60,733 nucleotides of DNA from Myxococcota bacterium (GCA_039187775.1 JBCCZL010000002.1:1-60733); one strand, 5' to 3'; shown: positions 632 through 21,159, numbered from the stretch's first letter. Notes: a model not told the origin generated them from the letters alone. Translations and numbers: made by a program.

Positions 632-2698
632 CTAGAGGGTCCTCTCCGACTCGAGCGTGGAAAGGAGACTGGTGCGGTTTTGTTCCGCGATCTGGCCGCC
701 TTGGATCGTTCCCTCGATGAGCTCGTAGCCCATCAGTCCGAACACCCGTCCGCGATAGAAGAGCGGCCGGGCGTTTCCGTACCAGTCCACGCACGACACC
801 TCGCAGCGATCGTCGACCACCTGAGGTTGGGCCGCGAGAACGCCGAGCTCACGCAAGGTCAGCTGAGAGACGTCGACATAAAGAACATACGCCGAGCCGT
901 GCACGAGGTGGGCGTAGCCGGGTTGTCTCGCGCTTCGAACCGGAATCCCAAGCGTGCCTTCATCGCCTCCCCGCGCACGATAGAAGAACCCGTGGCTCCG
1001 GGTCTCGCCTTGGGCCGCCCCCGGGCGGACGTAATGGCCACCCACCGCGGGAGGCACGCTCAGCTCAAGCGCTTGAAAGTGAAGATCCCGACCATCGGTT
1101 CCCACGACCATGCCGTGCCTTCCAAGCGCCTCGATCCGATCTGCTCCACCCCCAAGCCTCGCCGCGTGGTTGGCGCCGCTCGGCCAATGGTGCAGGAAGA
1201 CGCGGTCGTCGTTGCTCACCTGCCGACGCCCCCAGCTCGCGCCGCTCCCGTAGAGAAGATAGTCGCCGACAAACCGGTTCTGCACGACGTGCGCCTCTCC
1301 TCTTGGATTGGGGAGCGCTCGATACGCACTCCGCGCCATTGCCCGAACCCGGGGCCCAAAGCTCGAAAGAGGAATCCGAAGGAGCCCAAGCGACCCCCCG
1401 GTAAACTCGGGCGACCACATCGCGTCGCCGCTCCCGCGGGCGCGAAGCACGACGAGGAGGTCCTGCTCGGTTTGGTGGAACGAGAACTGATCGATGGGTG
1501 CGCCTTCCACTTCGACCACCGCCGGCGGTCCCCCATCGAGGGGAAGGCGGAACAGTTGATTGGGCCGAGCTCGAGCTGCCGCTTCCTGCCGCTCGAGTTC
1601 AGCCTCGGGGACGAGCCCGTCGAGCTCGTAGTGCCAGTCCGCCAGCGCGGAGTGCACCCACACATAGACCGCATCCGCGGAGACATAGAAGGTCCGTCCC
1701 TCGCCACCGAGGATTCCCTGCGCTGTGCAAGAAAAGCGGGGCGCTGAAAGATCGCAGCTCACGACGGTATGAAGCGTGGACGCATCCGACTGCCCGGGAA
1801 CCCGATACACCTCGCTCGAGTCCACGATCGGCTGCCATCCCGCACCCCCGGTTCGAAGCGCCGGATAGAAGGCGCGGGGCCGGGACCAGGCGCGGCGAAT
1901 CAAATAGTGCGGCATATAGAAGACGAGCCGGTCTCCCACGAGGCGGCTCGCATAGTTCCGAGACGAGTAGTAGTCGTTGGAGCGAAGAAAATGCGTGCCG
2001 TTCCGCGTGAAGCGACCGTTCGAAGCGATGGAAAAATGCGCCAGCTCGGTCGCGCCTTCGTCGTAGCTGAAGCCGACCACCACCACCTGGCCACTCGGAG
2101 CGTGCACCAACATCTCGTCGTACCAAACGTCGCGGCGACTGCCCCGAGGACGAACGTCGATGACGTCCACCGGCGTCGGCGTCCCCGTGGAGAGCCGTAC
2201 CGAAAAGAGCCGGCCACGCCGGAGCACGAGAAGGTACTCCCCCCACGCCTTCACGATGCCGCCTTCATCGACCCCCGCGACCTGGTTGTTGGTGACCGAG
2301 TCTTCGGTCGGTTGGGCGGGTGAAGTCGCGACGGCCCGGGCGGCGGTTGACCGCATGGCCCCGCGAGCTCGTCGTTCGCGGACCTGGCGCCGAGCCACGC
2401 TTCGCCGCAGTTTCGAGAGAATGGGCGCAAGGTGACGCCGAAGTTCCACTTGCTCCAACGGAGCCCCTTCCGGTCCTGCCACCGGCGAAGCCAGCGTCGA
2501 CGCGGCCAGCTCAAGAAGCGAGGACTCGTCAGCGTGGGAGTCGGAAGCGGCCGACCGCGTCGGTGCTTGCTCCGATGTCTCCGGAGTGGCCTCGGCCGGA
2601 GGGTCGACTGTGGGGTTTACCACTTCTTCGTGTCCTTGAAGCGCGGACGAGCCACACCCGACGAGCGCTCCGAGCGCCACGATCCACCACCGGTTCAT
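632..2698 (-). CDS. Secreted beta-propeller domain lipoprotein (Beta_propel/PF09826-like)
   Basis: Lipobox LVGC; TNNQVAGVDEGGIVK signature; C-terminal CEVSCVDWYGNARP. ATG at 2698 preferred to TTG at 2704. Confidence 0.85.
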   Translation of the reverse strand: MNRWWIVALGALVGCGSSALQGHEEVVNPTVDPPAEATPETSEQAPTRSAASDSHADESSLLELAASTLASPVAGPEGAPLEQVELRRHLAPILSKLRRSVARRQVRERRARGAMRSTAARAVATSPAQPTEDSVTNNQVAGVDEGGIVKAWGEYLLVLRRGRLFSVRLSTGTPTPVDVIDVRPRGSRRDVWYDEMLVHAPSGQVVVVGFSYDEGATELAHFSIASNGRFTRNGTHFLRSNDYYSSRNYASRLVGDRLVFYMPHYLIRRAWSRPRAFYPALRTGGAGWQPIVDSSEVYRVPGQSDASTLHTVVSCDLSAPRFSCTAQGILGGEGRTFYVSADAVYVWVHSALADWHYELDGLVPEAELERQEAAARARPNQLFRLPLDGGPPAVVEVEGAPIDQFSFHQTEQDLLVVLRARGSGDAMWSPEFTGGSLGLLRIPLSSFGPRVRAMARSAYRALPNPRGEAHVVQNRFVGDYLLYGSGASWGRRQVSNDDRVFLHHWPSGANHAARLGGGADRIEALGRHGMVVGTDGRDLHFQALELSVPPAVGGHYVRPGAAQGETRSHGFFYRARGGDEGTLGIPVRSARQPGYAHLVHGSAYVLYVDVSQLTLRELGVLAAQPQVVDDRCEVSCVDWYGNARPLFYRGRVFGLMGYELIEGTIQGGQIAEQNRTSLLSTLESERTL

Positions 2699-2853
2699 AC
2701 CCAATCATACGCCGCTGACCGACGGAACCTTGGGTCGATCGATCGCTCGGAACCGCCTCAGCAAGTGCGAATCTCCGATGGACTGAGCCGCGAAGGTCGG
2801 CTCCGGACACCCTAGAGTACGCCTGGCCGACATTGGCTGGAACAGGGAGGGTC

Positions 2854-4062
2854 ATGTCACGAGCAGCCGAGCCTGCGCGCGAAGCGCCGGGATCTGTGCG
2901 GTCACACGCCGTTGATGTTCTACGAGGAGTCGCGGTGCTAGCGGTGATGGGCTCCCACCTTCCGTTTTCCGTAGGAACCGAAACCGGCGGAGGCGTCTTC
3001 CCCGGGGGGTGGTTCACTTCGATCGCCGGGTACGGCCAGTACGGCGTTCACCTATTCTTGGTGATCTCCGGCTTCTGCATCCACTTGCGATGGGCGCGGC
3101 TCGCCGACCCCACAGTCTCCATCGATTTCGCCGGGTTCTGGAAGCGCCGCCTCGCCCGGCTCTATCCGCCCTACCTACTGGTTGTCTTGGCATCGTTCGC
3201 CGCGGTGCTCAGCCTGGCGAGCGTGATCGGAACACCCGGGAACGACTCAGTCGGCGCGCGATTCGGCTACGACAGCACCGCGCTCCTCTTCACGGATGCG
3301 TTGCTGTTCACGGTGATGGCGCAGAATCTGAACGGTGCATCACACCGCGTCGGCAACGGCCCCCTCTGGTCCCTCGCACTCGAGGAGCAGCTCTACCTGC
3401 TCTATTTTCCACTTCTCCGAATCCGCCGTTGCTATGGATGGCGAGTCGTGTTGGGGTCAACGTTCGCGGTCACCGTCGGCTGGCGCCTTCTTGGACTCGT
3501 GCTTCCCTGGGTCGAGCAAGGCTTCGGTTGGTTCCTCCTCGGCCCAGCGTTTTGGTTTCCCTGGGCGCTGGGAGCCTACGCCGTCGAGGTCTACCTCGGT
3601 CACGAGCGCCCTCCGAAGTGGCTGATGAGCCCGCTATTCTTTGTCGGCCTTCTCGCGGTGGGAGTGCTGTGTGACCCGCCGCACGGAGCGAGCTGGGAAC
3701 TTCGGGAAGTGAAGCTCGTTCTTGGTCACCTGGTGTTTGCCGCGGCGGGGTTTTGGCTCGTCTTGACGTGGACGTCCCGCGAGCGAACACGAGGGTTTCG
3801 ACACTCCTGGCTTGGTGACACGCTGCTCCGCGTCGGGATCATGAGCTACAGCCTCTATCTGACGCACCAACCCGTGTTCGTCATCAGCAAGCGACTCGCC
3901 CTCGCGGTCGGGCTGCCGCCCGCAGGGGCCCTGGCGATTCGTGTGATCGCCGCCTTCGCCGTAGCGATCGTCTTCTATCGATGGGTCGAGCTTCCGGCGG
4001 TTCGCTACGCGCGACACGTCCGAGTCCCGATGCGTAAGGCTCCCACACCGCATCGAGGATGA
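2854..4062 (+). CDS. Acyltransferase-3 family membrane O-acyltransferase (OafA/YrhL-like)
   Basis: DVLRGVAVLAV..H, GVHLFLVISGF, FWKRRLARLYPPY, LWSLALEEQLY and SYSLYLTH motifs; GGGAGG RBS before ATG 2854. Confidence 0.92.
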   Translation: MSRAAEPAREAPGSVRSHAVDVLRGVAVLAVMGSHLPFSVGTETGGGVFPGGWFTSIAGYGQYGVHLFLVISGFCIHLRWARLADPTVSIDFAGFWKRRLARLYPPYLLVVLASFAAVLSLASVIGTPGNDSVGARFGYDSTALLFTDALLFTVMAQNLNGASHRVGNGPLWSLALEEQLYLLYFPLLRIRRCYGWRVVLGSTFAVTVGWRLLGLVLPWVEQGFGWFLLGPAFWFPWALGAYAVEVYLGHERPPKWLMSPLFFVGLLAVGVLCDPPHGASWELREVKLVLGHLVFAAAGFWLVLTWTSRERTRGFRHSWLGDTLLRVGIMSYSLYLTHQPVFVISKRLALAVGLPPAGALAIRVIAAFAVAIVFYRWVELPAVRYARHVRVPMRKAPTPHRG

Positions 4063-4150
4063 ATCGAGCGCTGGGACTGCCCCCGCGCGTTTAGCGTCCG
4101 AGTAGAGCGGGGTCTTTACCGTCGCGAGTTCATGGGACGCGACAAGCCCG

Positions 4151-5281
4151 CTACTGGAACGGGTCGCTCCAACGCGGATCGGTGAGGACCGTTTCGTCGG
4201 TCAGGCTTCGGAGAAACTCGAGCATGTCGGCCTGCTCCTCGGGCGTCATATCGAAGCCGTGAACGAAAATGTTCTTGTTGGGGTTTTCCCGGCCATCGCC
4301 CACGTAAGGGCCCTCCGTCACATTCCGGCCCGCCGCGGCGTAGACCGCGAGGACATCTTCGAGGGTCTCCACGCTGCCGTCGTGCATGTAGGGCCCGGTC
4401 ACCGCGATGTTTCGCAGGGTCGGCGGCTTGAAGCGCCCCATGTCCGCTCGGCCGCCGGTGATTTCAAAGATCCCCGTGTTCTCGGGCGGGTACGCGCCTC
4501 GGCCGTCGACGTTGTAGAGACCGTTGTTGAAGAACACGGCTTCTTCAAACACGACGCCTGAGTGGTCCACCGAAGACGAGAAGTTGAAGCTGCCGTGGCA
4601 GTGAAAGCAGTCGAACTTCTCTCCGAAAAAGAGCTCCGCCCCGCGGCGGGCAGATTCGGTGAGCTCGCCTCGGTCGTAGGGCGAATCGGCGCTGATGATC
4701 GAACGCTGAAACGCTCCCAGCGACCGAACCACATTCTGCACGGTGATCGGCGCGGGCTCATCAGGAAACGCCTCCGCAAACATCGCCGGATATCGCGCGT
4801 CGGCGGTCAGTCGCTCCACGAGAAGCTCTTCCTGACCCGCCATGCCGAGTTCGACGATCGGCGACTCCCCAAAGATCGGCAGCAGCGCCTGCTCCTCGAG
4901 GTTGTTGAGCAACGGGTTGGCCCAAGTTAGCGTCGCCTGGTAGGCCACATTCACGAGGCCCATCGATCCCCGCGGATGAATCTCCCCGGTAGAGCCCTCC
5001 GCGAGCGCGAGTCCGTCGGTGAATGCAAGGTCCTGCTGGTGGCAGCTCCCGCAAGACTGGGTTTCGTTGAGCGAGAGACGCGTGTCGTAGAACAAGAACC
5101 GGCCGAGTTCCACCTTGGCGTTGGTCATCGGGTTGTTCGCCGGGACGCGCGGTTCGGGAAACCCCTCCGGCAGATTCCACTCCCAGCCCTGAGGGTCGAC
5201 CATCGCTTCGTCGGAGTCCCCCCCGCAGCCCCAGAAGGCCGCGAGGCAGAACAAAAGCGAGAGCCGACCCGGAAACGCCAT
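4151..5281 (-). CDS. mbnH: MbnH-family di-haem enzyme (bCcP/MauG superfamily), lipoprotein
   Basis: Haem motifs CGSCH and CFHCH; [21 protein letters not shown] and [20 protein letters not shown]; directly downstream of an MbnP gene. Confidence 0.9.
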
Positions 5282-5295
5282 GCGATGACTCTAGG

Positions 5296-6204
5296 CTATT
5301 CTAGGCGAAAAAATGACTGGGGGGTCGCGCCGGGCATCCCGCTCTGAAAGTCGAGCCCGAGCTTTGGAAACACCGGGCCACAGTCGCCTTCGTCGTTGGG
5401 AAAGGACTGGCAGCCGGGAGGGGTCATATCGGTGTTCATGGTGAGGTCGGCATCCGCCACGAGAGGGGCGAGGTCTGCAACGATAACGCTGGAGGCGATG
5501 TCGAAGTTGGTCAAGGAAACGTCTGCCCGGTTCGGTCGTCCGCACTCCGCGGTCGGGGGCTCCATCGGGCCGCCGCTCGAGCACATCGTCGAACCGAGGT
5601 GAACATTGTAGCCGCCCGCGCCGACCCCAAGATCGATCCGGAGGAACTTGTAGCCCCCCTGCCAGACCCAGAACATCCCGCTGATATTGAACGGAGAGTC
5701 GGCGTCGGCGACGTTCTGATGGTTCATCGAGAAGGGAATGCCCATCGTGAAGCGGACCTCGTTGTAGTCGCCTTCGGCCACCGTCCCGACGACCGTCGAC
5801 CGGAGGGCCGAGTTGCCCATCATGCAGTCGGCGCTTCCGTCTTCGAAGTCGAGAAGCGCGACATCCTCCCGCTGGAACATCCCGTCCTGCTCGAGAGTCA
5901 CCGGCACCTCCGTTCCCGCGGAGTTCACGAGTCGAATGTTCGAAACGTAGAAACGGAAGTCGGCTCCCACCGCGTCGCTGTTCGCGGTGCCCAGGCCCGA
6001 GTAGGTCGTCCCACAGCTGAAGTCCATGTCCCCAACCTTTGCCGCAAAGTTCAGGGTGACGGGAGTTTCCGCGCCACTGGCATCGCCGTCGGGGGTACTG
6101 CCGTCCGGGGGATTGGCGTCCGCGGGACCGGGATCATCGTCGTCACCACAGCCAGTCATCGGGAGCGCGAGCGAAAGGGCACACAAGATCACACTAAGAC
6201 GCAT
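5296..6204 (-). CDS. mbnP: MbnP-family copper-binding lipoprotein
   Basis: Lipobox MTGC; DFRFYVSNIRL, ALLDFEDG, WxW motif in MFWVWQGGYKFLR, and HLGSTMC; paired with MbnH. Confidence 0.9.
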   Translation of the reverse strand: MRLSVILCALSLALPMTGCGDDDDPGPADANPPDGSTPDGDASGAETPVTLNFAAKVGDMDFSCGTTYSGLGTANSDAVGADFRFYVSNIRLVNSAGTEVPVTLEQDGMFQREDVALLDFEDGSADCMMGNSALRSTVVGTVAEGDYNEVRFTMGIPFSMNHQNVADADSPFNISGMFWVWQGGYKFLRIDLGVGAGGYNVHLGSTMCSSGGPMEPPTAECGRPNRADVSLTNFDIASSVIVADLAPLVADADLTMNTDMTPPGCQSFPNDEGDCGPVFPKLGLDFQSGMPGATPQSFFRLE

Positions 6205-6317: not shown

Positions 6318-7751
6318 CTAGAGCTCGTGGATCAGCGGAAGTACGAAGAGTACGTACAGCACGGCGAGAAGGATCTGCATTCCCGCATAAGGGAGCGCCG
6401 CTTTGACAAAACCTGCGAAACTCATCGGCACGCCCTGCTTGTGCATGATGGTGACCGCAACCACGGTGCTCGCCGAGCCGATCGGCGTCAGGTTGCCTCC
6501 GAGGTTCGCCCCGAAAATCACCGCCCACCAAAGCCCTGAATCGCCAGGGGTTTCGAGTCCGGCCAGGATCTTGGCGAGCATCGCCGCGAGCGGAATGTTG
6601 TCGGTGACCGCCGAGAATCCTGCGGCGGACACGAGGGTCGCCGCGGTTCCCGCCATGGGCCCGAGGCCGATCATCGCTTCGAGGCCCTGGCCGATGAGCG
6701 TGAGTACCTGCGCGTGCTCCATCACGTTGATCACCACGAACAGGAACACAAAGAACAGAAGCAGGTCCCAATCGAGGGCCCGATAGAACTTGTCGACGCT
6801 GCTCTTGAACCGAAGCAGCATGATCACACCGAAGGCGATGGCCACGAACCCCATGCCGAGGCCGTCGCGGCCGTCCTCCGTCGGGCCTACCCACGGCAGC
6901 ACGCTCGTCGTGGCGATGAGAATGATAAAAAGGATCGTCATCGCGGCGGCGAAGTTGAAGAATCCACGACTCTCGATCCCGTCGTTCTCATCGAAGCCCG
7001 CGACCAGCTCGGCCGCCGCTTTCTGTTCTTCTTCACCCCGAAGCGGCCGGATTCGGAACAACCGGGCGCCCATGAACAGGGTGGCGGCGGTCGCGGCGAT
7101 CACGAAGGGGCTCGCGGCGATGAAGAACGACACGAAGCTGATCCCTGCGGTTTGTCCGACGATGATGTTGGGAACCGAGCTAATCAGCGTGAGAAGGCCT
7201 CCGATGTTCGTGAGAAGGCCTTCGATGAGAAGAAACCCGAGGAGCTTTTCGTCCTGGCCGAGCTTTCGGAGCGACACCCCGGTGAGCGAACCGACGATGA
7301 TCATCGCGGTTACGTTGTTGAGGACCGCCGAGAACACGACCGTCATGATCCCGTAGTAGATCAGCAGGCGAAGCGGATCGCCGGCCGACGCCTTGGTGAG
7401 TTTGATCGCGATCCAGGTAAAGAGACCGCTCTTGGCGGTCACGTCGACAAACAGACTCGAGCCAAAGATGATCGCGATCACTCCCCAGTCCACCGCCGGG
7501 ATGTACACGGGAACGTTGAGCGAATCGCCGAAGGCGTTTTCGACTGGTCCAAAGGGAAGCAAGTCGAACGCAGCTCCGAGGAGCAGGCTTACGACCGCGT
7601 AGAATCCGGTGATCAGCGACTTCTTCGCGTGGATCTTCTCCTCGAACGCGAGCGTGAGAACCATCGCGAGAAGCACCCCCGCGAAGAGGAGGGTGACGGT
7701 GAGCGATGTCTCGTGGTGCCCCGCTTCGTGAGCCTGAAGGAAGATCGGCAT
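6318..7751 (-). CDS. ArsB/NhaD/SLC13 (ion transporter superfamily) permease
   Basis: About 12-13 hydrophobic segments; SAVLNNVT, NIGGLLTLISSVPN, SAVTDNIP and GANLGGNLTPIGSAS motifs. Confidence 0.9.
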   Translation of the reverse strand: MPIFLQAHEAGHHETSLTVTLLFAGVLLAMVLTLAFEEKIHAKKSLITGFYAVVSLLLGAAFDLLPFGPVENAFGDSLNVPVYIPAVDWGVIAIIFGSSLFVDVTAKSGLFTWIAIKLTKASAGDPLRLLIYYGIMTVVFSAVLNNVTAMIIVGSLTGVSLRKLGQDEKLLGFLLIEGLLTNIGGLLTLISSVPNIIVGQTAGISFVSFFIAASPFVIAATAATLFMGARLFRIRPLRGEEEQKAAAELVAGFDENDGIESRGFFNFAAAMTILFIILIATTSVLPWVGPTEDGRDGLGMGFVAIAFGVIMLLRFKSSVDKFYRALDWDLLLFFVFLFVVINVMEHAQVLTLIGQGLEAMIGLGPMAGTAATLVSAAGFSAVTDNIPLAAMLAKILAGLETPGDSGLWWAVIFGANLGGNLTPIGSASTVVAVTIMHKQGVPMSFAGFVKAALPYAGMQILLAVLYVLFVLPLIHEL

Positions 7752-13387: not shown

Positions 13388-14524
13388 TTAGCCGAGCTCC
13401 GCGTCCAGTTGGCGACGCCAGTCGCTGAGCGCATCCTCAAAACGCCCAAAGCGGAAGTGTGTGTTGGCGGAGGTGGCCAAGCCCCGCTGGATCCTTTCGC
13501 CTATTTCGAAATCCTCATCGAGCGTCTGCACCGAGAAGGCGTGGTTCTTCTCCAGAAACGTCCGCGCCTGGTCGCTGAGCTCACCTTCCTCTGGGGCGGT
13601 GCCAACGGTGAGCACCTCGATGCGGGTACGGTCCACGGCGAGCGGAGTCAGCAGGAGTAGATCGAAGTGCGACTTCTGGAGCAGGATCATTGCGTTGGGG
13701 TGAATCGAGTAGACGATATGCGTATGGTCGCGAATGTCCCACCGCTCTCGAGGCAAGCCGTCGAGTTCGACGATCGAGCGCTTTGGCAGCACCGACCGCA
13801 TGTGCGGTCCGATGCGCTCCCAAGTCGAGGCTGTGTCGACGAAGAACGGCGCGATGGTGTCCTTGTGGGCGATGATGAAATGGTAGGACTCGATGCCCCC
13901 TTCGACGACGAGCTTCCAGTTCGCCTTCCAGGTACGCGCAGTGGAGGCGTAGGCCGTCGGACGCGGGCCGACCATCTTCTCCAGCTCCTCGACCAGCGCA
14001 GCGGGCATCGGCTCGGGATCGACCCCCGGAGTGGGGCACACGAACACCAGTCCCGCCGCCTCGAGGCATGGAAGCTCGACCAGCCCGTGGTCCTGCACCT
14101 TGAGCGTAGGGAAACCCTCCGGGTGTCGCGTGCGGTGGAGCGTGCCGTCGACGTTGTATGTCCAGGCATGGTACGGACACACGAAGCGCTTGCAGCGTCC
14201 TTCCGACCGAAGCTCGACCGTCGCCCCCCGGTGCCGGCAGACATTGAGAAAGGCACGGAGGCGACCATCCTCACCTCGCACAACCACCACCGGGTTGCCA
14301 ACGACGTCTGCCGTCACGAACTCACCCGGCGCCGCCACCTTCGAAGACAGGGACACGACGTTTAGCTGGCGCTCGAAGATCTGTTCTTTTTCAAGCCCAA
14401 AGCGCGCCGCATCACGGTAGTCGGAAGTGGGAACGAGGTGCTCATCACCGTCCACAGGACGGCGCTTCGCCAGTGCCATCGCCAGCGACGTCGTTAACAA
14501 ATCGATCTCTTTCGCTCTGTCCAT
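13388..14524 (-). CDS. Rieske non-haem iron oxygenase alpha subunit
   Basis: Rieske ligands CRHRG...CPYHAW; iron-site motifs ANWKLVVEGGIESYHFIIAH and DEDFEI; ATG 14524 with GGAG RBS. Confidence 0.92.
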   Translation of the reverse strand: MDRAKEIDLLTTSLAMALAKRRPVDGDEHLVPTSDYRDAARFGLEKEQIFERQLNVVSLSSKVAAPGEFVTADVVGNPVVVVRGEDGRLRAFLNVCRHRGATVELRSEGRCKRFVCPYHAWTYNVDGTLHRTRHPEGFPTLKVQDHGLVELPCLEAAGLVFVCPTPGVDPEPMPAALVEELEKMVGPRPTAYASTARTWKANWKLVVEGGIESYHFIIAHKDTIAPFFVDTASTWERIGPHMRSVLPKRSIVELDGLPRERWDIRDHTHIVYSIHPNAMILLQKSHFDLLLLTPLAVDRTRIEVLTVGTAPEEGELSDQARTFLEKNHAFSVQTLDEDFEIGERIQRGLATSANTHFRFGRFEDALSDWRRQLDAELG

Positions 14525-14538
14525 GGCTCCTTCTCCGC

Positions 14539-15141
14539 TCACCGCTCGTTGATGCAAAGGACGCGCTGCATGAAGTTCTGAAGCTCGCGCACTACCCGAT
14601 TCCGGGACATCTTGCGCCCACGGGAAAGGGCACCGTGGAGGCCCTGCCCCACACCACCCATCAGCAGCGCACCGCAGATCTCGGCATCGACATGCGCGGG
14701 AACACGGCCCAGGCTCTTTCCTCTCGCGACGTTCTTGACCGCACCGCGCACCAGTCGGTCAGAGCGGAGTCTCTGGTGCCTCACCGCCTCGGCGTCTCCG
14801 ATGAGCCGCTGCTGTATCAGCGCACCCAACGGGTGTCGATAGTGGAACTCCACGGTCACGCGAATCCGCTCCTTCTCGCGTTCCCACCAGTCATCGGACA
14901 CTTCTTCGAACGTAGGACGGTAGGCCAGTGCTTCCCACGCGTCGTAGAAGCTATCGACGAGCGCCACCAGCAGGTCGCTCTTCGATGAGAAGTGCCTATA
15001 GGGCGCACCGGCCGAGACTCCGGCCCGGAGGGCCACGGCCGCGAACTCCACCGCGCCATCGTGAGCCACCAGCTCCTCGGTGGCTGCTTCCAGGAGTCGC
15101 TGACGCGTGCGACTACCGCGCGATGTCTGTCCAATCGGCAT
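14539..15141 (-). CDS. TetR/AcrR family transcriptional regulator
   Basis: TRQRLLEAATEEL...VALRAGVSAGAPYRHFSSKSDLL helix-turn-helix; ATG at 15141. Confidence 0.92.
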   Translation of the reverse strand: MPIGQTSRGSRTRQRLLEAATEELVAHDGAVEFAAVALRAGVSAGAPYRHFSSKSDLLVALVDSFYDAWEALAYRPTFEEVSDDWWEREKERIRVTVEFHYRHPLGALIQQRLIGDAEAVRHQRLRSDRLVRGAVKNVARGKSLGRVPAHVDAEICGALLMGGVGQGLHGALSRGRKMSRNRVVRELQNFMQRVLCINER

Positions 15142-15223
15142 TAAACAGCGAGGGCAGCTCTCGAATGGGCAGGAATATCCGCACGTTGCGCAATCAGAGG
15201 GCTTAACGGTCACCGCTAGATAG

Positions 15224-15480: not shown

Positions 15481-16746
15481 TCAAACGGTGACCCGGTAGA
15501 AGTAAACGGATGAACCGGCGTGATTCACCACGACGAAACCGCGGAGCTCCTTTACGTAACTCCACCGACCATAGGTTCCTGCCGTGACCTGTTGTGGAGG
15601 GGTGTCTCCATGAAAGGTCTCGTGGTTCCAGGTTGGATTGTCTCCATGAACGCTGACCCACGCGACGTCACGGGTGCCCGGCTCCAAGGTGCGGTTGTTG
15701 GGCGACGAGCTTACTCCGGAGTTGAGTGCGTAGAGTCGCTCCTGATGGCTGTCGTACGCGACGGCTTGCGCGCTCCCCCTGGGGTAGTCTGCCGTGGCCC
15801 ACGAGGTCGATTCTGCCGATCGAACGTTGATCTTCTGTGGTTCGGTGGAACTGCCAGGACCGCGATCGAATGCGAATACTGTGTCGGCGAGGCCGCCGCC
15901 CATGTCGCCCATCGGGCAGCACATACTGTCGCCCCCGACTCCCCCGGAACGCATGGTCCCCTCGTTGCGCCAGCTGCGCGGCTCAACTCCGTCCACCGTA
16001 CGACCAAAGGGATTGTAGGCGCCGATCGTCTGACCGGTGATCGAATAAAAGAGCCCAGTCGTCGGGACGTAGACGCTATTGCTGTGCTGCTTGATGCGAC
16101 GAAAATCCCCGGTGTCGGGGTGGGAGATTCCGCGCGCTTCATCCCAGTCACCGGAAGCGACGTCGTACACATCGACGCCCCGTGATACGCCTCCCGGACC
16201 ACAGTGGACCGAGTTCATCCAAAGCATGCAGATCTTGCCCGCACCGTATGAAAAGTCTCCCGAGGTGTGACGGGCGGTGGGTCGCCCATCGGCGTTGTGC
16301 TGCGTGCAGGTGCGGAGGTGGGACTCCCGGGACTGGGAACTAAGCTGGCTCCACTGCGGGTTGTCTGCGCCTGGCCCGTAAAGGGGGCCAAACGCGTAGA
16401 TCGAGTTGTCGGGCCCGTTAAGGTGGCCGCCGCCCATGACGCAGAGATAAGGCTGGCCACCCATGTAGGCGACGGTTCCTCCGGAGTATCCGAAAAGGTT
16501 GTACGGCCAAAGTGACCCTCCGGCGATGACGTCATCCGGAGGCGTCCAGTCCTCAGAAGTCCCCACCCGTGCCTCTTGAGCCGCCAACAGTGAGGAGTCA
16601 CCAAAGCTTCCTCCGCCGGGGACAGTGCCCGACGACGGAATCGCGACGATTACCCCTGGGTTCTGCCACGCCGGATACCAGGAGGGGAGCGCTTCGGCGC
16701 GAGTCAAGATCCTCACACTGAAAGGAGGACTGCTGATCTGACTCAT
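15481..16746 (-). CDS. Kelch-like beta-propeller protein without a signal peptide
   Basis: GGGH..GPDNSIYAF, DGRPTARHT, VDVYDV..GDW and C-terminal GTYGRWSYV...VYFYR; ATGA overlap with the upstream gene. Confidence 0.75.
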   Translation of the reverse strand: MSQISSPPFSVRILTRAEALPSWYPAWQNPGVIVAIPSSGTVPGGGSFGDSSLLAAQEARVGTSEDWTPPDDVIAGGSLWPYNLFGYSGGTVAYMGGQPYLCVMGGGHLNGPDNSIYAFGPLYGPGADNPQWSQLSSQSRESHLRTCTQHNADGRPTARHTSGDFSYGAGKICMLWMNSVHCGPGGVSRGVDVYDVASGDWDEARGISHPDTGDFRRIKQHSNSVYVPTTGLFYSITGQTIGAYNPFGRTVDGVEPRSWRNEGTMRSGGVGGDSMCCPMGDMGGGLADTVFAFDRGPGSSTEPQKINVRSAESTSWATADYPRGSAQAVAYDSHQERLYALNSGVSSSPNNRTLEPGTRDVAWVSVHGDNPTWNHETFHGDTPPQQVTAGTYGRWSYVKELRGFVVVNHAGSSVYFYRVTV

Positions 16747-18038
16747 GCCAACACCCGGGGGCTACCGCCGTTTTCAAAGAGAGCGTACGCGTATTGAAGC
16801 TCGCCCTTGTTGACTCGTAGGTACGCAAACCCCAGTGCCGAAGCGAGACGGGAGTCCACGTAGTGCTCGATCGACGAACGTTCCGTACGCTGTCCGCCGA
16901 AGTAGTTGTGTTGCGTGTCGAGGAAGTGGTCCCATGCGCGGTCGAGGTAGGTGGGGTTTCCATCGAGCTTGTAGGCAAAAACGAGCAGATTAACCAAGCT
17001 GATGTTGTAGGTAGACCGGCTCGCCGATCGATGCTGGGTCATCGTACCGTTGCTTCCCATGCTGGCTCCCGTTTGGGGATTCGGAGAGTTGGGGTTGTCG
17101 CTTGTGAGGCTGGCGTCTCTTCCATGGCGCACGACCCAGTTCGCCATCGCGATGATCCGACTGCGAACATCTTCCGCGGTGACGCCCCTGATCGCCCTGC
17201 CCCCGCGAAGTGAGCGGTAGAGCTGCCACAACGAGTCCGCAAGCACGCCAATGTGGAAGGACGAGCATGCGCGCCATCCGGCCGCAAAGGCGTTGACTCC
17301 AAACTCGCGGTCGGTCTTGCCGCCGTCCCAGAAGTACATTCCCGCCGTCGGATCCCATTGCTCGCTGGAAAAGACACTCTCGACCACCTGATCGCGAAAT
17401 TCGATCACGGTGGGGTCAGCGGAGACTTCGGCGGCGGCGACCGCCAAGCGCAAGAGACGAGCCCACCGACGTTGAGCTCTCCCCAACGCACTCTGGTATC
17501 CGCGGTACCAGTTCGAATCGATGAGGAACTGCCGCACGTCGCGGGCGATCGCTTCCACCACTGCCCGAGCCTGTGCATCGCCCTCACCCACAGCCCAATC
17601 GCGAAGCCCCCATCCGTAAACGTGGTCGAGGTTGCACGGGTCACTCTGGGAAGCACGCCACGCATCGTCCGGCCAGATGTTCTTGTAGTAGTTGGCCAGG
17701 TTTTCGGCCCGAGTGCGATAGACCTCCGCGGCGCCGGGTTCGAAGTCGCGCAGGCGCCGATACATCTGGTAGGCGGTCCAGAGCTCATCACCCTCGGTCG
17801 TTTCGTGGAACTCTCCCGCACGGCCACCTCCCTCAAAATCGGATTTGTTGCGATAGCGGTCGAGGCGAGAAGCATCGTTTCCGTCGGTGATCAGTCGAAC
17901 TGCGCCCGTCGTTAGCAGCCCTCTGCGGGCATAGGCTCGGTCTTCGTCCTGCAGGGTCGGGAGCTCACCCAGAAGGGCCTCCGAGGCTTCTGGCAACACT
18001 TGAAGCTCAAACGCAGCGCTGGTCGCGACGGCCATCAC
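16743..18038 (-). CDS. Hypothetical helical, aromatic-rich protein (possible alpha/alpha-toroid carbohydrate enzyme) without a signal peptide
   Basis: 431-aa ORF translationally coupled on both sides; W/Y/R/H-rich amphipathic helices (e.g. YLDRAWDHF). Fold call is inference. Confidence 0.7.
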   Translation of the reverse strand: MMAVATSAAFELQVLPEASEALLGELPTLQDEDRAYARRGLLTTGAVRLITDGNDASRLDRYRNKSDFEGGGRAGEFHETTEGDELWTAYQMYRRLRDFEPGAAEVYRTRAENLANYYKNIWPDDAWRASQSDPCNLDHVYGWGLRDWAVGEGDAQARAVVEAIARDVRQFLIDSNWYRGYQSALGRAQRRWARLLRLAVAAAEVSADPTVIEFRDQVVESVFSSEQWDPTAGMYFWDGGKTDREFGVNAFAAGWRACSSFHIGVLADSLWQLYRSLRGGRAIRGVTAEDVRSRIIAMANWVVRHGRDASLTSDNPNSPNPQTGASMGSNGTMTQHRSASRSTYNISLVNLLVFAYKLDGNPTYLDRAWDHFLDTQHNYFGGQRTERSSIEHYVDSRLASALGFAYLRVNKGELQYAYALFENGGSPRVLA

Positions 18039-18445
18039 AACCCGTCGTCGGCGGTTGCGATGAGTCCGTCGACCGAGGCTTCGTCGGACGGCGTGCCGCT
18101 GATTCGCCCGTTATCGAATGACAAGCCCGCAGGCAACGGCATGTTGAGGGTGATCGTCGATGCGCCACTCGCGTCGGTGAGATATGCACGCAGGTCCAAG
18201 TCCACGGGTTCACCGACGACGAACACCAGGCTGGGAATGCTGGCCCACATAAGGGTCTCTGCAGTCATGCCTCCGTCGGGCGAGGCCCCGTCCGGAACCG
18301 ACGAGTCAGGCCGAGGCGGGGTCCCATCCGGGGCGATGACCGTTCCGCACCCGGCAGCGACAACCGAGAGGCCGGTCGAGATCACAAAGTGCCGACGGCC
18401 GAGGTGGCGGTGTCCGATGGTGTCGTGCTCTACGGGGTCTTCCAT
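18035..18445 (-). CDS. Small Tat lipoprotein with a putative Ig (He_PIG-like) domain
   Basis: GRRHFV twin-arginine motif, lipobox AAGC, and LPAGLSFDNGRISGTP Ig signature; ends at ATADDGL. Confidence 0.8.
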   Translation of the reverse strand: MEDPVEHDTIGHRHLGRRHFVISTGLSVVAAGCGTVIAPDGTPPRPDSSVPDGASPDGGMTAETLMWASIPSLVFVVGEPVDLDLRAYLTDASGASTITLNMPLPAGLSFDNGRISGTPSDEASVDGLIATADDGL

Positions 18446-18624
18446 GGGGCTCCTTCGCGGCGTCTGGTCCAGAACCGCGGAGCCGTCTCGAACCGGTCCA
18501 CGGACTTATCCGGCTCACGTTGCCGGATCTGTGCCACGGAGGGGCCTTGAAATCGTGAGCGAATTCGTCGCTGGTGGGCGAGCGCCCTCCGGCTCGCGTT
18601 GGTGGGGTAATCCCCACCAACCTG

Positions 18625-19755
18625 TCATGGGAGGGCGAGTGCGGTCGGGATCGTTGTGGTGCCGCCCGGCGACCCGTCGCGATCCCCCAGTCCCCAGCAC
18701 CAAAGGCTGCCGTCTGTCTTCGTCGCGCAGGTGACGCTGTCTCCGGCGGTAACGAATTGATAATCCTGATCGCCAAGGACCGGCGCGATTTCCAATGGGC
18801 CGGACCCCCGCGCGCCTCGACCCAGCTGCCCCTCTGAGTTGTCGCCCCAGCAGAATAGGGTGCCATCGGCGATCACCCCACAGCTGTGGCCGAGTCCAGC
18901 GGCAACGCTCACCCAGTCGTTTCGATCGCCTACCCGGGCAGGTCCCGGCGCCTCCGAATGACCGAGCTGTCCGGCTACGTTGGCGCCCCAACAGTGGAGC
19001 GCACCGCCGCGATCGATCGCACACGTATGGTCTGTTCCCGTAGCAACGACTCGCACCCGGAAGTCTGGAAGTTGGCGAGGCTCGGTCGCCTCCGTCGGTC
19101 CGAACCCGGTCTGTCCTTCCGAACCGATGCCCCAACACCACAACGCATCCGGGCCTCGAATCGCGCACGCATGAGCTCGGCCGAGGCGAACTTGATCCCA
19201 GTCGGATGCAGGGGCCACAGGGACCGGGGGACACTGCTGGTTCGTGTCGATGCCAAATTGGCCCGCACCGCTGAGGCCCCAGCACCAAAGGCTCCGGTCC
19301 TGCCGAATCGCGCAGGTAAAGTTCAAACCCACATCGACCGAGCGCCATTGTTGATCGTTGACTCGAAAAAACTCGGCCGAAGTTCCGGCCCCACAGTTGC
19401 CGAGCTGCTGTTCGAGGTTGGACCCCCAGCAAAAGAGTTCGCCGCCTTCCCGGATCCCGCAGGTGTGACCTTGAAACCCGGGGGAGGTGCGAACGTCATT
19501 CCAACCGGGGCCCGAGTCCACCAAGGCGGGCGTTTCCGCAGACTCCACTCCGGGTCCGAGCGCCGTCGAACCCGCTCGCCCCCAGCAGAACAGCTCACCC
19601 CGCAGCCCGACGGCACAGCTGGCTCGCCCCCCCGAATCCAGCGCGACCAGTGCGTCGTCTCGGCAGTTCGGAGCGCAGGCCGGGCCGGTTGGCGGATCGA
19701 TAAACTCAGTGAAACATCCTCCAAGTAACCCTACGCCGAGGAGCCAGGCTCTCAT
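18625..19755 (-). CDS. RCC1/BLIP-II repeat lipoprotein
   Basis: Lipobox LGGC; seven HTCAI..G.L.CWG.N..GQLG-type repeats. Confidence 0.92.
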   Translation of the reverse strand: MRAWLLGVGLLGGCFTEFIDPPTGPACAPNCRDDALVALDSGGRASCAVGLRGELFCWGRAGSTALGPGVESAETPALVDSGPGWNDVRTSPGFQGHTCGIREGGELFCWGSNLEQQLGNCGAGTSAEFFRVNDQQWRSVDVGLNFTCAIRQDRSLWCWGLSGAGQFGIDTNQQCPPVPVAPASDWDQVRLGRAHACAIRGPDALWCWGIGSEGQTGFGPTEATEPRQLPDFRVRVVATGTDHTCAIDRGGALHCWGANVAGQLGHSEAPGPARVGDRNDWVSVAAGLGHSCGVIADGTLFCWGDNSEGQLGRGARGSGPLEIAPVLGDQDYQFVTAGDSVTCATKTDGSLWCWGLGDRDGSPGGTTTIPTALALP

Positions 19756-19830: not shown

Positions 19831-21159
19831 GTGGCCGGTGAGACATCCAACGACGGAACCCTACCCGTTCGGTCGGGGGGATTGCCTATCAAGTTGCTCA
19901 AGGCCAACGTGGTGTCGGGGCCGGACGCCGGGATCACGGCAACCGCTCGGAACGACCGGCTCACTATTGGGACCGCCACCGGCAACGACCTGGTCTTGAC
20001 CGATCCCACGGTATCCCGGTTTCACCTCGAGCTTCGCCGCAGCCAGGGCAAAGTCCTCGCCTCGGATCTCAGCTCTACGAACGGGACCACGGTCGGAGAC
20101 GTTGCGCTCGGACCTGGCAGCGTCTACGTGCGCTCGGGCGCACAGTTCCAGATTGGAAACACGACGATCGAGGTGGCGGACGGCCAGATCGTGATGATGG
20201 AACGCGGCGAGTCCAAGCTCGGAGAGCTGCACGGCAAGAGTCGGGTGATGCATCAGCTGTTCTCCATGGTTAGCACCGTCGCAAAGAGCCAGGTCGCCGT
20301 TCTCGTCCTCGGCGAATCTGGAACCGGCAAAGAGCTGGTCGCCCGTGCCCTGCACGAAGGCAGTCTTCGAGCGGACGGCCCTTTCGTCACCGTCGACTGC
20401 GCCGCGATCGCGTCGTCACTTTTTGCGTCGGAGCTGTTCGGACACGAGCGTGGAGCGTTCACGGGCGCACATCGACAACACATCGGTGCATTCGAACGAG
20501 CCCACGGAGGCACTCTGTTTCTCGATGAAGTCGGTGAACTTGCCGCGGAGCACCAAGCCCAGCTCCTGGGAGCGCTCGAACGCCGCAGAGTCCGTCGAGT
20601 TGGAGGAACCGACGACTTTCCCGTCGACGTTCGAGTCGTATCGGCGACCCACCGCGACCTGCGAGCAGGAGTCAATGAGGGGTCGTTCCGGATGGACTTG
20701 TTTTACCGCATCGCGGTCACGCACTTGGTCATCCCTCCGTTGAGGGAGCGGCGCGAAGATATCCCGGCGCTCATCGAGCTCTTCCTGAAGGCAGAAGGGT
20801 CGTCAAAGACCGCCGAGCAACTGTTCGGTGCGGAGGCTCTCAGCCGGTTGAGGCGTTACCGATGGCCCGGAAACGTGCGTGAACTCAGAAACGTCGTTCG
20901 CGGAACACTCGCGACGGGCGCAGCCGCACAGTTTGAGAGCGCAGCGCCGGTGGACCCGAACGTCGACGAGGGCATCGACGACGTCCTGGAACACAGCTAC
21001 CGAGACGCAAAGCGCGCGACGATAGATCTGTTTGAGCGACGCTACCTCTCCAAGTTGCTAGAGAAGAGCGAAGGGAACATCCGAAAGGCATCCCGCATCG
21101 CACACATGGACCGTGGCTACTTGATCGAGCTCCTGCGCCGTCACGGTCTCAAACGCTAG
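19831..21159 (+). CDS. FHA-domain sigma-54-dependent enhancer-binding protein
   Basis: FHA (VSRFH...STNGT), Walker A GESGTGKE, intact [21 protein letters not shown] and Fis-type HTH. Confidence 0.95.

Follow-up and report, generated by a model that had tools for sequence, protein, structure and literature searches.

Three open reading frames (ORFs), which we call A, B, and C, lie head to tail on the minus strand at positions 15481-18445 of a 60,733-nucleotide (nt) stretch of DNA from a Myxococcota bacterium (GCA_039187775.1, JBCCZL010000002.1:1-60733; the window hereafter means this whole stretch). A encodes a putative lipoprotein with a truncated immunoglobulin (Ig)-like domain, and B and C encode larger proteins that lack signal peptides and begin with a beta-strand segment; this description, first offered by a sequence-only reading of the same DNA, was confirmed by the translations and by Pfam. 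We refer to A as the acceptor, or socket, to the N-terminal segments of B and C as donor strands, or plugs, and to B and C themselves as cargoes (Table 1). B is in the -1 frame relative to A, and its ATG at 18035 shares one base with the stop codon of A (TGATG); the sequence GAAGGAG is listed for gene A, 5 nt before the ATG. Logan contigs, made with a different assembler from the probable source run at a depth of ~6.5, run over both junctions with 0 differences and 0 gaps, a check that is independent as an assembly and draws on the same probable source sample. That DNA run is the only one that holds the stretch, and no RNA run is listed as containing it. Among 41 genomes of the same order, B is present in two (the source genome counted).

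We judged twin-arginine translocation (Tat) and lipoprotein signals by eye on the translations, using the usual definitions of the twin-arginine (RR) motif and the lipobox. The N-terminus of A, MEDPVEHDTIGHRHLGRRHFVISTGLSVVAAGC, has a long n-region in which residues 17-18 are RR; its lipobox cysteine is residue 33. In detail, G-R-R-H-F-V-I occupies residues 16-22 (RR codons at 18392-18397), the hydrophobic stretch STGLSVVAAG is weak, and the lipobox reads VAAG/C, with Cys33 encoded at 18347-18349. TatC (PF00902) is encoded elsewhere in the genome (contig C137, 210 bits). Beyond the signal, A matches Pfam He_PIG (PF05345; 28.4 bits where the cut-off is 24, E = 2.4e-6). The match is confined to positions 8-66 of the 96-position profile; A has 16 more residues after it and stops at ADDGL. 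The C-terminus is ...ISGTPSDEASVDGLIATADDGL*, its last residues DGLIATADDGL, so that the stop falls at the turn after strand F. Judged from profile coverage, the He_PIG domain of A is incomplete, about one strand (strand G) short of a whole domain. A is 33% identical to a second acceptor of the same genome (E = 6e-12) and 27-35% identical to 12 acceptors from Burkholderiales, and all 13 aligned proteins end in A[DS]DG plus one or two residues.

The N-terminus of B reads M(M)AVATSAAFELQVLPEASEAL, in which the strand segment M(M)AVATSAAFELQVL is followed by PEASEAL. We saw no hydrophobic N-terminal stretch by eye in B or in C, and hence no signal peptide. There are 62 homologues of B in a large protein collection, whose own call for the window protein (P0001, 430 amino acids [aa]) uses the ATG start. 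The closest homologue, P0002 (59% identity), starts MATALSDAFRISVL / MATALSDAFRISVLPQG, and a subfamily of B shares the start MAT.ASN.F.IGI. The remainder of B matches no Pfam family and has the conserved motifs TEGDxLW, DHxYGWGL, and NKGELQY..FENGG. Folded alone from a 17-row alignment, B is modelled as all-helical with a predicted template-modelling score (pTM) of 0.81, while residues 1-23 have a predicted local distance difference test (pLDDT) below 50. Foldseek returns weak matches to GH88 (4q88), GH76, AGE epimerases, and a polysaccharide lyase (5noa), with a best E of 2e-3 (none at E <= 1e-3) and template-modelling (TM) scores of 0.46-0.57; the B profile has no match among the Protein Data Bank (PDB) sequences (best E = 0.92). 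On the structure model, B weakly resembles the (alpha/alpha)6-barrel carbohydrate enzymes.

C begins MSQISSPPFSVRILTRAEAL, its donor strand running into TRAEAL. Its nine homologues include the window's own protein (eight besides C). The collection's own call for C (P0064, 411 aa) starts at GTG/V11 and so cuts the donor motif (16716-16746) in half; the ATG at 16746 is supported as the start by its overlap with the stop of B and by the whole-motif starts of P0065 and P0069. Because the P0064 call clips the motif, the start chosen by a gene caller can evidently hide a donor tag. Pfam gives no family for C, and its homologue P0069 carries PF24681 (precomputed column). Folded alone (pTM 0.78, mean pLDDT 67.8, residues 1-17 below 50), C is modelled as a propeller that Foldseek matches to Kelch domains (E = 5e-9 to 1e-7, TM ~0.6 on the target). 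The models thus give B and C unrelated folds, with only an N-terminal strand segment in common that is predicted to be disordered when each protein is folded alone. We considered whether the first strand of C closes its own propeller in the manner of a velcro strand, and rejected this since homologues with signal peptides lack the strand and the model leaves it disordered.

Table 1. Features of the three-gene module, of its surroundings in the window, and of the second locus (L108) in the same genome; L108 positions follow the numbering of that locus.
Feature	Position	Strand	Description and basis
Gene A	18035..18445	-	136-aa acceptor (socket); ORF translation
Signal region of A, residues 1-33	18347..18445	-	read by eye from translation
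Putative incomplete Ig domain of A, residues 65-136	18038..18253	-	complex-model interface and Pfam coverage
Gene B	16743..18038	-	431/430-aa cargo 1; start GTG 18038 or ATG 18035
Predicted donor strand (plug) of B, residues 2-18 (MAVATSAAFELQVLPEA)	17985..18035	-	complex model
Catalytic-type domain of B	16746..17963	-	all-helical, (alpha/alpha)6-barrel-like; alignment and structure model
Gene C	15481..16746	-	421-aa cargo 2; ATG overlaps stop of B (ATGA)
Predicted donor strand (plug) of C, residues 1-14 (MSQISSPPFSVRIL)	16705..16746	-	motif-matrix rank and homologues
Predicted Kelch-type six-bladed beta-propeller of C	15484..16686	-	core starts LPSWYPAWQ; structure model
RCC1-repeat protein	18625..19755	-	directly upstream of A; Pfam RCC1/WD40_RLD
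Sigma-54 enhancer-binding-type regulator	19831..21159	+	divergent from the RCC1-A-B-C group; family read from sequence
Candidate sigma-54 -24/-12 site, TGGCACAGATCCGGCA	18521..18536	-	~75 nt upstream of A; weak, 2 mismatches to TGGCACN5TTGCW
TetR-family regulator	14539..15213	-	downstream of C
Rieske/ring-hydroxylating oxygenase alpha subunit	13388..14557	-	downstream of the TetR-family regulator
L108 sigma-54 activator	6357..7415	-	Sigma54_activat, E = 3e-65
L108 near-consensus -24/-12 site, CGGCACATCCGTTGCT	6071..6086	-	just upstream of D1
L108 cargo D1	5009..6058	-	349 aa; 38% identical to N-terminal half of P0070, E = 2e-55
L108 cargo D2	3907..5007	-	366 aa; E = 6e-14 to Burkholderiales second cargo, aligned from residue 1
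L108 acceptor	3467..3895	-	142 aa, RR-lipoprotein, MIRTGDRISRRRFVGG...TTIGC...HMLTADDGA*; He_PIG positions 6-60 of 96
L108 RCC1 lipoprotein	2212..3372	+	convergent with the acceptor

The split between socket and cargo recurs in other genomes. Homologues of B led us to 104 loci, 32 in species genomes and 72 in metagenomes, of which we examined 87, omitting those that match only in the C-terminal part (L030-L032, L034, L083, L085, L090, L092-L096, L098, L099, L102, and L105) as well as L084, which has the length and match coordinates of L027. A locus was assigned to the donor class when no 11-residue stretch before the core motif averaged >=2.0 on the Kyte-Doolittle scale. This gives 21 loci with a donor-strand N-terminus (20 once L039, which is really fused, is set aside), 20 with a signal peptide and N-terminal domains, and 19 with a signal peptide directly before the core; in 13 the core motif was not found, eight have no signal by our crude hydrophobicity rule, five have a long N-terminus running off the contig, and one is cut by a contig end. 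By eye, five of the eight "no signal" loci have a plain RRxFLK: L013, L082, L086, and L087 encode Tat lipoproteins, and L027 lacks a lipobox.

In the 20 donor-type loci (mostly exopolysaccharide loci of Burkholderiales), B starts exactly at MA.xxSxxFxVxI, each time with its own ATG. The ORF opens one codon before this ATG in 17 of them, three codons before it in one, and at the ATG itself in the other two. In the junctions that we inspected, GGAG-type Shine-Dalgarno sites lie a few bases 5' of the ATG, and most donor-type loci have an intergenic gap of ~30-150 nt with in-frame stops ahead of B. Because of these separate starts, ribosome-binding sites, and gaps, an assembly error or a programmed frameshift is excluded as a general explanation. 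An acceptor-type gene precedes B in all 18 donor-type loci that have upstream sequence. Where the N-terminus of the first acceptor is intact (15 loci, the other three being cut by a contig end), it has ERRxFL and a lipobox in every case and ends ...LTADDG(K/R)(P/S/A). On L011, the one locus searched with Pfam, Big_9 is matched in the acceptors over positions 1-76/77 of 89, so that the last strand is again left out.

In 16 of the 18 loci a further gene, for a protein of 95-96 aa, separates the first acceptor from B; the protein starts with a donor strand (MAQTSSVAFTVTVAN-LPPVW...) and ends ...LTADDGRP. Read from its sequence, this 95-aa unit would be strand plus socket, following the logic of a pilin. 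Its start overlaps the acceptor stop by one base (TGATG), as at the A/B junction of the window. We rejected self-complementation of the unit, by inference, since its four-residue NLPP linker between strand G and strand A is normal for tandem arrays (P0100). Downstream of B, a second strand-first cargo (MATANSNPFDVRVV..., 331-346 aa where complete) is present in 15 of 15 loci with enough sequence; C of the window shows no significant similarity to this second cargo or to P0033 (best E = 0.50 and 0.53), and we dropped the idea that they are one family. In the loci inspected, the module follows genes for a chain-length determinant, a ParA-type kinase, a beta-barrel, and AAA_22 (Pfam on L011 only), a context that points to an exopolysaccharide locus. 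We also noted that in several Burkholderiales loci the spacer between the 95-aa gene and the B gene is 90-150 nt long (L047 5880-6000, L044 5909-6000, L068 5445-5536, and L097 5851-6000) and that its 3' end is alike between them (...gatgagcacgtgagcggggga-tagtcgATG).

In both cargo families the strand appears to take the place of a signal peptide. Homologues of B with a complete N-terminus begin with a signal peptide, with a lipoprotein signal and Ig-like domains, or with the strand. In the C family, P0065 (MAGVETSFSITVGTLPDWYP) and P0069 (MSGIASNSFSISVTSGGMPSWYP) are strand-first and without a signal, in P0067 and P0068 a Sec signal abuts PSWYPAWQ and the strand is absent, and P0070-72 carry a fused D1-type N-terminal domain. 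At the level of sequence, strand and signal peptide are mutually exclusive in these families. P0067 and P0068 also carry PF18962 (precomputed column), which we take to be a type IX secretion C-terminal sorting domain. Fusions join the cargo families to each other, a D2-type propeller with B in P0033 and P0037 and D1 with a C-type propeller in P0070-72, which suggests that the cargoes work together.

Fused lipoprotein-Ig-B chains exist as well (P0022, P0023, P0039, P0051, and P0057 with Big_7; P0030, P0038, and P0053; L039). In the unsplit P0100 the strand comes right after the DG turn (...ASDGDYEIQSPNFRVIVANLLPVW...; ...FTASDGDYEIQSPNFRVIVAN-LLPVWGTVP...), and so it does in L039 (...SADGNPVALQAPLSASFNVTVQ...LPDWN), in which Pfam finds 0 families. 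The split proteins are colinear with the unsplit chains, the cut falling at the F-G turn. The RR motif is associated with the split: it is found in the 15 intact first acceptors of split loci, in A, and in the L108 acceptor, while of 45 non-split B homologues whose start looks like a signal a regular expression flags it in eight (five convincing by eye), and the fused forms inspected have none by eye; these counts are inflated by kinship among the loci. If the strand must meet the socket before export, the carrier needs a pathway that moves folded complexes. Among other tandem He_PIG-type proteins, P0145 and P0179 pass from ...TADDG straight into the PPVW of the next domain with no strand between, and both end ...TFRATD(Q) at the F-strand turn, though these may be partial gene calls.

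A different element was seen at the C-terminal end of B homologues. In 14 of the 30 homologues fetched the chain closes with the short tail P.(A/P)P..L.V(Q/K/N/E), which resembles the opening strand of FN3 domains: 12 with their own signal peptide (P0004-P0006, P0008, P0009, P0011, P0013, P0015-P0017, P0019, and P0020) and the fusions P0033 and P0037. The tail is followed by a real stop in L028, L035, L043, L054, L057, and L070 (TAG in L070 and TAA in the other five), and no coupled downstream gene was found in the 12 loci of tailed signal-peptide homologues that we inspected. The tail could be a docking or sorting tag.

We asked how specific the donor motif is within the source genome by using a 12-residue matrix built from 38 unique donor N-termini of Burkholderiales, with no window sequence among them. 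C scores 16.1 bits, the highest of 36,574 first-start ORFs of at least 100 aa and the second highest of 248,011 candidate starts in the genome. The first and fourth ranks are held by MSNASSSPFSIRIS and MGMRESNPFQVSIS, both on contig C40, where they are the starts of the cargoes of a second locus. A regular-expression pair of acceptor end and donor start has a single match in the 10.1-Mb genome, at the A/B junction, and only two acceptor-type ends were found in this 91%-complete genome (regular expression, with 68 ORF ends read by eye). The second locus (L108; genome G000, contig C40:6000-13500, minus strand 3467-6058) has two strand-first cargoes and the socket gene last, and its acceptor is 63% identical to a Burkholderiales acceptor (E = 8e-33).

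We then modelled the complex of full-length B (17-row alignment) with residues 34-136 of A (13-row alignment). The A-B pair has an ipSAE interface score of 0.63 (runs 0.66, 0.54, and 0.63), compared with 0.01 for the best of three controls. Of 80 solved complexes 58 attain the mark that it passes, as do 2 of 110 mismatched pairs, a calibration that is only rough here since we supplied our own alignments. The A-B runs agree in at least 50% of contacts, with partner pLDDT of at least 68. Confident contacts join residues 2-18 of B to residues 65-77 and 121-136 of A, within a full interface on A of residues 65-77, 79-91, 104-105, 119, and 121-136. In the model, strands A (65-77) and F (121-132) of protein A line an empty G-strand groove; B 10-15 runs parallel to A 72-77 (strand A) and antiparallel to A 129-122 (strand F), and F10, L12, and V14 of B point into the groove. 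The model thus supports a placing of the B strand in the canonical G-strand position of the Ig domain of A.

These results bear on most of what the sequence-only reading had put forward. It had supposed that the cargoes complete the beta-sheet of the adaptor, and for A with B the model agrees, at the G-strand position. It had also looked to relatives of the adaptor, expecting them to end at the DG turn and to be followed by varied genes starting SxxFxhxh. The 13 aligned proteins and the second acceptor of the genome do end there, and they are followed by four unrelated cargo families and by the 95-aa strand-plus-socket linker. Its two worries, that A and B might be one frameshifted gene and that the N-terminus of the third protein might not be conserved, are answered by the 20 loci in which B has its own ATG and the second assembly agreeing at the junction, and by the strand being kept in the signal-less relatives of C and absent from those with signal peptides. 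It had not anticipated that donors outnumber acceptors two to one.

Taken together, we think it probable that A, B, and C form a noncovalent plug-and-socket system that carries folded proteins out of the cell via Tat and tethers them to the membrane. The comparison of loci establishes, at the level of sequence, the split, its conservation, and the exclusion of strand and signal peptide by one another. A protein of the order anchor, Ig domain, enzyme would have been cut inside the Ig domain, at the F-G turn, and not between domains. A would be the socket, a Tat lipoprotein whose Ig domain has no strand G; B and C would be plugs, folded and signal-less, whose first ~15 residues are the missing strand, followed by a linker. 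In the cytoplasm the strand of B (or C) would insert between strands A and F of the socket by donor-strand complementation, as the model supports for B. The complex would then leave, folded, through the Tat translocase on the single signal peptide of A, that is, by hitchhiking. A would be lipidated at Cys33, and the cargo would thereby be held at the membrane surface outside the cytoplasm. Because the Burkholderiales module sits inside exopolysaccharide loci, the module's likely job would be to place glycan-processing proteins at the envelope. A wider reading is that the G-strand MAxxxSxxFxVxV is a portable export-and-docking tag, by which any folded protein bearing it could use the socket for passage through Tat and display on a lipid anchor, and that sockets can be chained by 95-aa units into noncovalent, pilin-like stalks, as a general principle of surface assembly; related sockets that terminate coiled-coil or collagen-like proteins with no Tat signal would fit it. 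This is possible, though we would sooner doubt it than expect it.

Several observations weigh against the proposed system. On the matrix B scores only -3.2 bits (rank 1446 of 248,011), so its case rests on its position, on the homologue P0002, and on the complex model. That model covers the A-B pair, and because the alignments are shallow and the PDB contains pilus donor-strand complexes, its pass could partly reflect learned Ig-strand geometry. A search of a 5.8-billion-protein collection for homologues of A (62 candidates) returned only A itself. The locus counts overstate independent support, since L008 equals L055 and the sets L047, L100, and L101, L044 and L103, and L014 and L019 are near-duplicates. 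Domains of the B family use Sec in relatives, so that a need of the folded state for Tat is not evident. Finally, plugs exceed free sockets by one in every locus (sockets to plugs, 1/2 in the window, 1/2 in L108, and 2/3 in the Burkholderiales loci), a stoichiometry that is unexplained: it is possible that each socket molecule carries either cargo, that the socket is made in excess, or that paired cargoes sit on two anchors, which the fusions P0033/P0037 and P0070-72 would fit.

Strand and socket might also bind without being an export device, A being exported alone and B and C either working in the cytoplasm or leaving by some other route and docking on A later. We consider this fairly unlikely. 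The data do not fix the time and place at which the complex forms, if no cargo could leave without a socket the surplus of plugs would be wasteful, and the many B-family relatives with Sec signals indicate that folded export is not required. However, relatives of B and C otherwise carry signal peptides or lipoprotein-Ig extensions, which makes an extracytoplasmic location the norm of the family, and B and C show no export signal of another kind; such binding without export would also leave unexplained why RR marks all 15 split sockets and the two of this genome, as against 8 of 45 flagged among non-split proteins, a pattern that assembly in the cytoplasm predicts. A relic of gene fission, in which a lipoprotein-Ig-enzyme gene split within its Ig domain and left B and C a strand that no longer binds anything, would accord with the existence of the nine fused forms listed above (P0022 to P0057 and L039) and with A being an orphan by sequence search. 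We regard it as improbable: four cargo families of no common origin in sequence, and the 95-aa linker, retain the same cut point and strand motif, in at least three lineages and with separate starts, the donor motif is the top-scoring N-terminal feature of the genome, and the complex model puts the strand in the groove.

Two further explanations would make A and B a single product. If A and B were one gene that had lost a base around 18035-18040, through an error of sequencing or assembly or as a pseudogene, just the -1 relation of B to A would result; the depth of ~6.5 is low, and fused relatives exist. Against this, the contig of the second assembler spans 17108-18500 with 0 differences and 0 gaps (from the same probable source sample), B has an identical start residue in P0002 and in 20 other loci, many of which have a gap with in-frame stops ahead of it, and the TGATG overlap of stop and start recurs at acceptor-donor junctions elsewhere. 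Such an error would also be silent on C, and we hold this explanation to be largely refuted and very improbable. Programmed -1 ribosomal frameshifting or transcript slippage, fusing A to B, has in its favor only the frame relation and the overlap of the ORFs, and we give it the least credence of all. Slippery heptamers for -1 frameshifting follow the rule X XXY YYZ, and none is seen at ...GACGACGGGTTGTGATGG...; in relatives the donors lie ~30-150 nt from the acceptors with in-frame stops between, and in L108 the acceptor is downstream of both cargoes. Fusion by frameshifting is impossible in the relatives and in L108 because of these stop-containing gaps and this gene order.

The proposed system combines two known principles, Tat hitchhiking and donor-strand complementation. 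In Tat hitchhikers such as hydrogenase-2 HybO/HybC of Escherichia coli, DmsAB, and PaoABC, as proposed here, one subunit has the RR signal and its signal-less partners are exported folded (co-export of PaoABC, PMC4273604; hitchhiking also in PMC10924467; work on HybOC is cited in PMC13673990). Those systems are cofactor-containing redox enzymes with large dedicated interfaces, whereas here the contact would be a single transplanted beta-strand of a split Ig domain; unlike them, the module has a small noncatalytic lipoprotein as adaptor and puts the same strand tag on unrelated cargoes. Chaperone-usher pili (FimA, PapA) share with the module an Ig fold without strand G and an N-terminal donor extension on the partner, the principle of donor-strand complementation being set out in PMC11821415. 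The 95-aa strand-plus-socket proteins of the Burkholderiales loci would follow this pilin-like logic, their linker being too short for self-complementation. The module differs from pili in having no Sec signals on its subunits, enzyme-sized terminal units, and, as we propose, assembly in the cytoplasm; neither a PapD-like chaperone (PF00345) nor an usher (PF00577) was matched in the 91%-complete genome (0 matches each). In the archaeal tafi of Haloarcula hispanica, filaments built by strand donation, and in a Tat-dependent bundling pilus, Tat, N-terminal donor strands, and Ig-like subunits all occur. There TafA, TafC, and TafE each pass through Tat, have their signals cleaved, and assemble outside (Figure 5 of PMC11821415), and the Tat pathway is linked to a strand-donation pilus in PMC12337348. 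Unlike tafi, the module has a signal only on the socket, and its product would be an anchored enzyme complex and no filament; the window also has no subunit bearing both strand and socket, as the 95-aa unit does in 16 of 18 related loci.

The unsplit lipoprotein-Ig-B chains have the same order of parts, with an Ig domain ending in a ...T/SVxV strand, a proline-rich linker, and a core beginning MPSLEDE... They differ in being one polypeptide, in signals that lack RR where inspected and are Sec-type by eye, and in an Ig domain that is mostly Big_7. In the cohesin-dockerin pairs of cellulosomes, too, a small anchored scaffold offers sockets to varied enzymes that all bear one short docking tag; neither in fold nor in chemistry are these pairs related to the present module, and cellulosomal parts are secreted singly and dock outside the cell. 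The full-text literature searched yielded no account of piggyback export by means of a split Ig domain. If our reading is right, proteins can be sorted in a new way, in which a beta-strand of ~15 residues does the work of a signal peptide: it completes the Ig domain of a carrier that has such a signal. This would explain signal-less families of plainly extracytoplasmic, glycan-enzyme-like proteins that predictors call cytoplasmic. Tat hitchhiking would then reach past cofactor enzymes and donor-strand complementation past pili, and the pair would be a very small natural plug and socket for the export and surface anchoring of folded proteins. Should the more doubtful idea of a portable tag hold as well, it would be a general principle like that of cohesin and dockerin, made from one split Ig domain.

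The surroundings of the module are partly shared between the two loci of the genome: an RCC1-repeat protein and a sigma-54-type regulator flank both the window module and L108, those at L108 being paralogues of the two in the window. We compared sites with TGGCACN5TTGCW, which we take to be the sigma-54 -24/-12 consensus. The frequency of such sites is not above chance in the window (15 matches, 16.5 expected), where position is the sole hint in favor of the candidate upstream of A, nor in L108 (2 matches, 2.1 expected). On the other side of the module, the TetR-family regulator and the Rieske oxygenase beside C (13388-15213) have no evident link to it.

A search with the 95-aa unit against 1.84 billion cluster representatives gave 1249 matches at E <= 0.001, with 319 of them at 1e-10 or below and 17 at 1e-30 or below. 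Giant tandem-repeat proteins head the list, their repeats aligning across the register of strand plus domain. Among the best 150 of the 1249 matches are 45 proteins of at most 300 aa; 30 of these end with the strict acceptor pattern and ~41 at the same turn by eye, 16 have an RR motif, and 11 have a lipobox. The donor N-terminus pattern is found in two of the 45, one of which (P0105) looks like chance, and P0096 (98 aa, MAQTTSGLFTVQTL...), which the pattern does not flag, is donor-like by eye. Because of the 1249 representatives and the short acceptor-type proteins among them, the module is not rare in metagenomes. In the viral contigs searched P0125 has no relatives, and none of 50,697 phage records matches P0126; the 26 loci obtained with P0207 owe their matches mostly to collagen-like repeats, and no acceptor-type ORF is present in any of them. 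These three belong to a group of ~14 of the 45 proteins (P0124-P0126, P0130, P0162, P0164, P0171, P0192, P0200, P0207, P0208, P0210, P0211, and P0221) that by eye have coiled-coil or collagen-like (GPQGPxG) N-terminal parts, no Tat signal, and a truncated Ig domain ending ...LTADDGKP.

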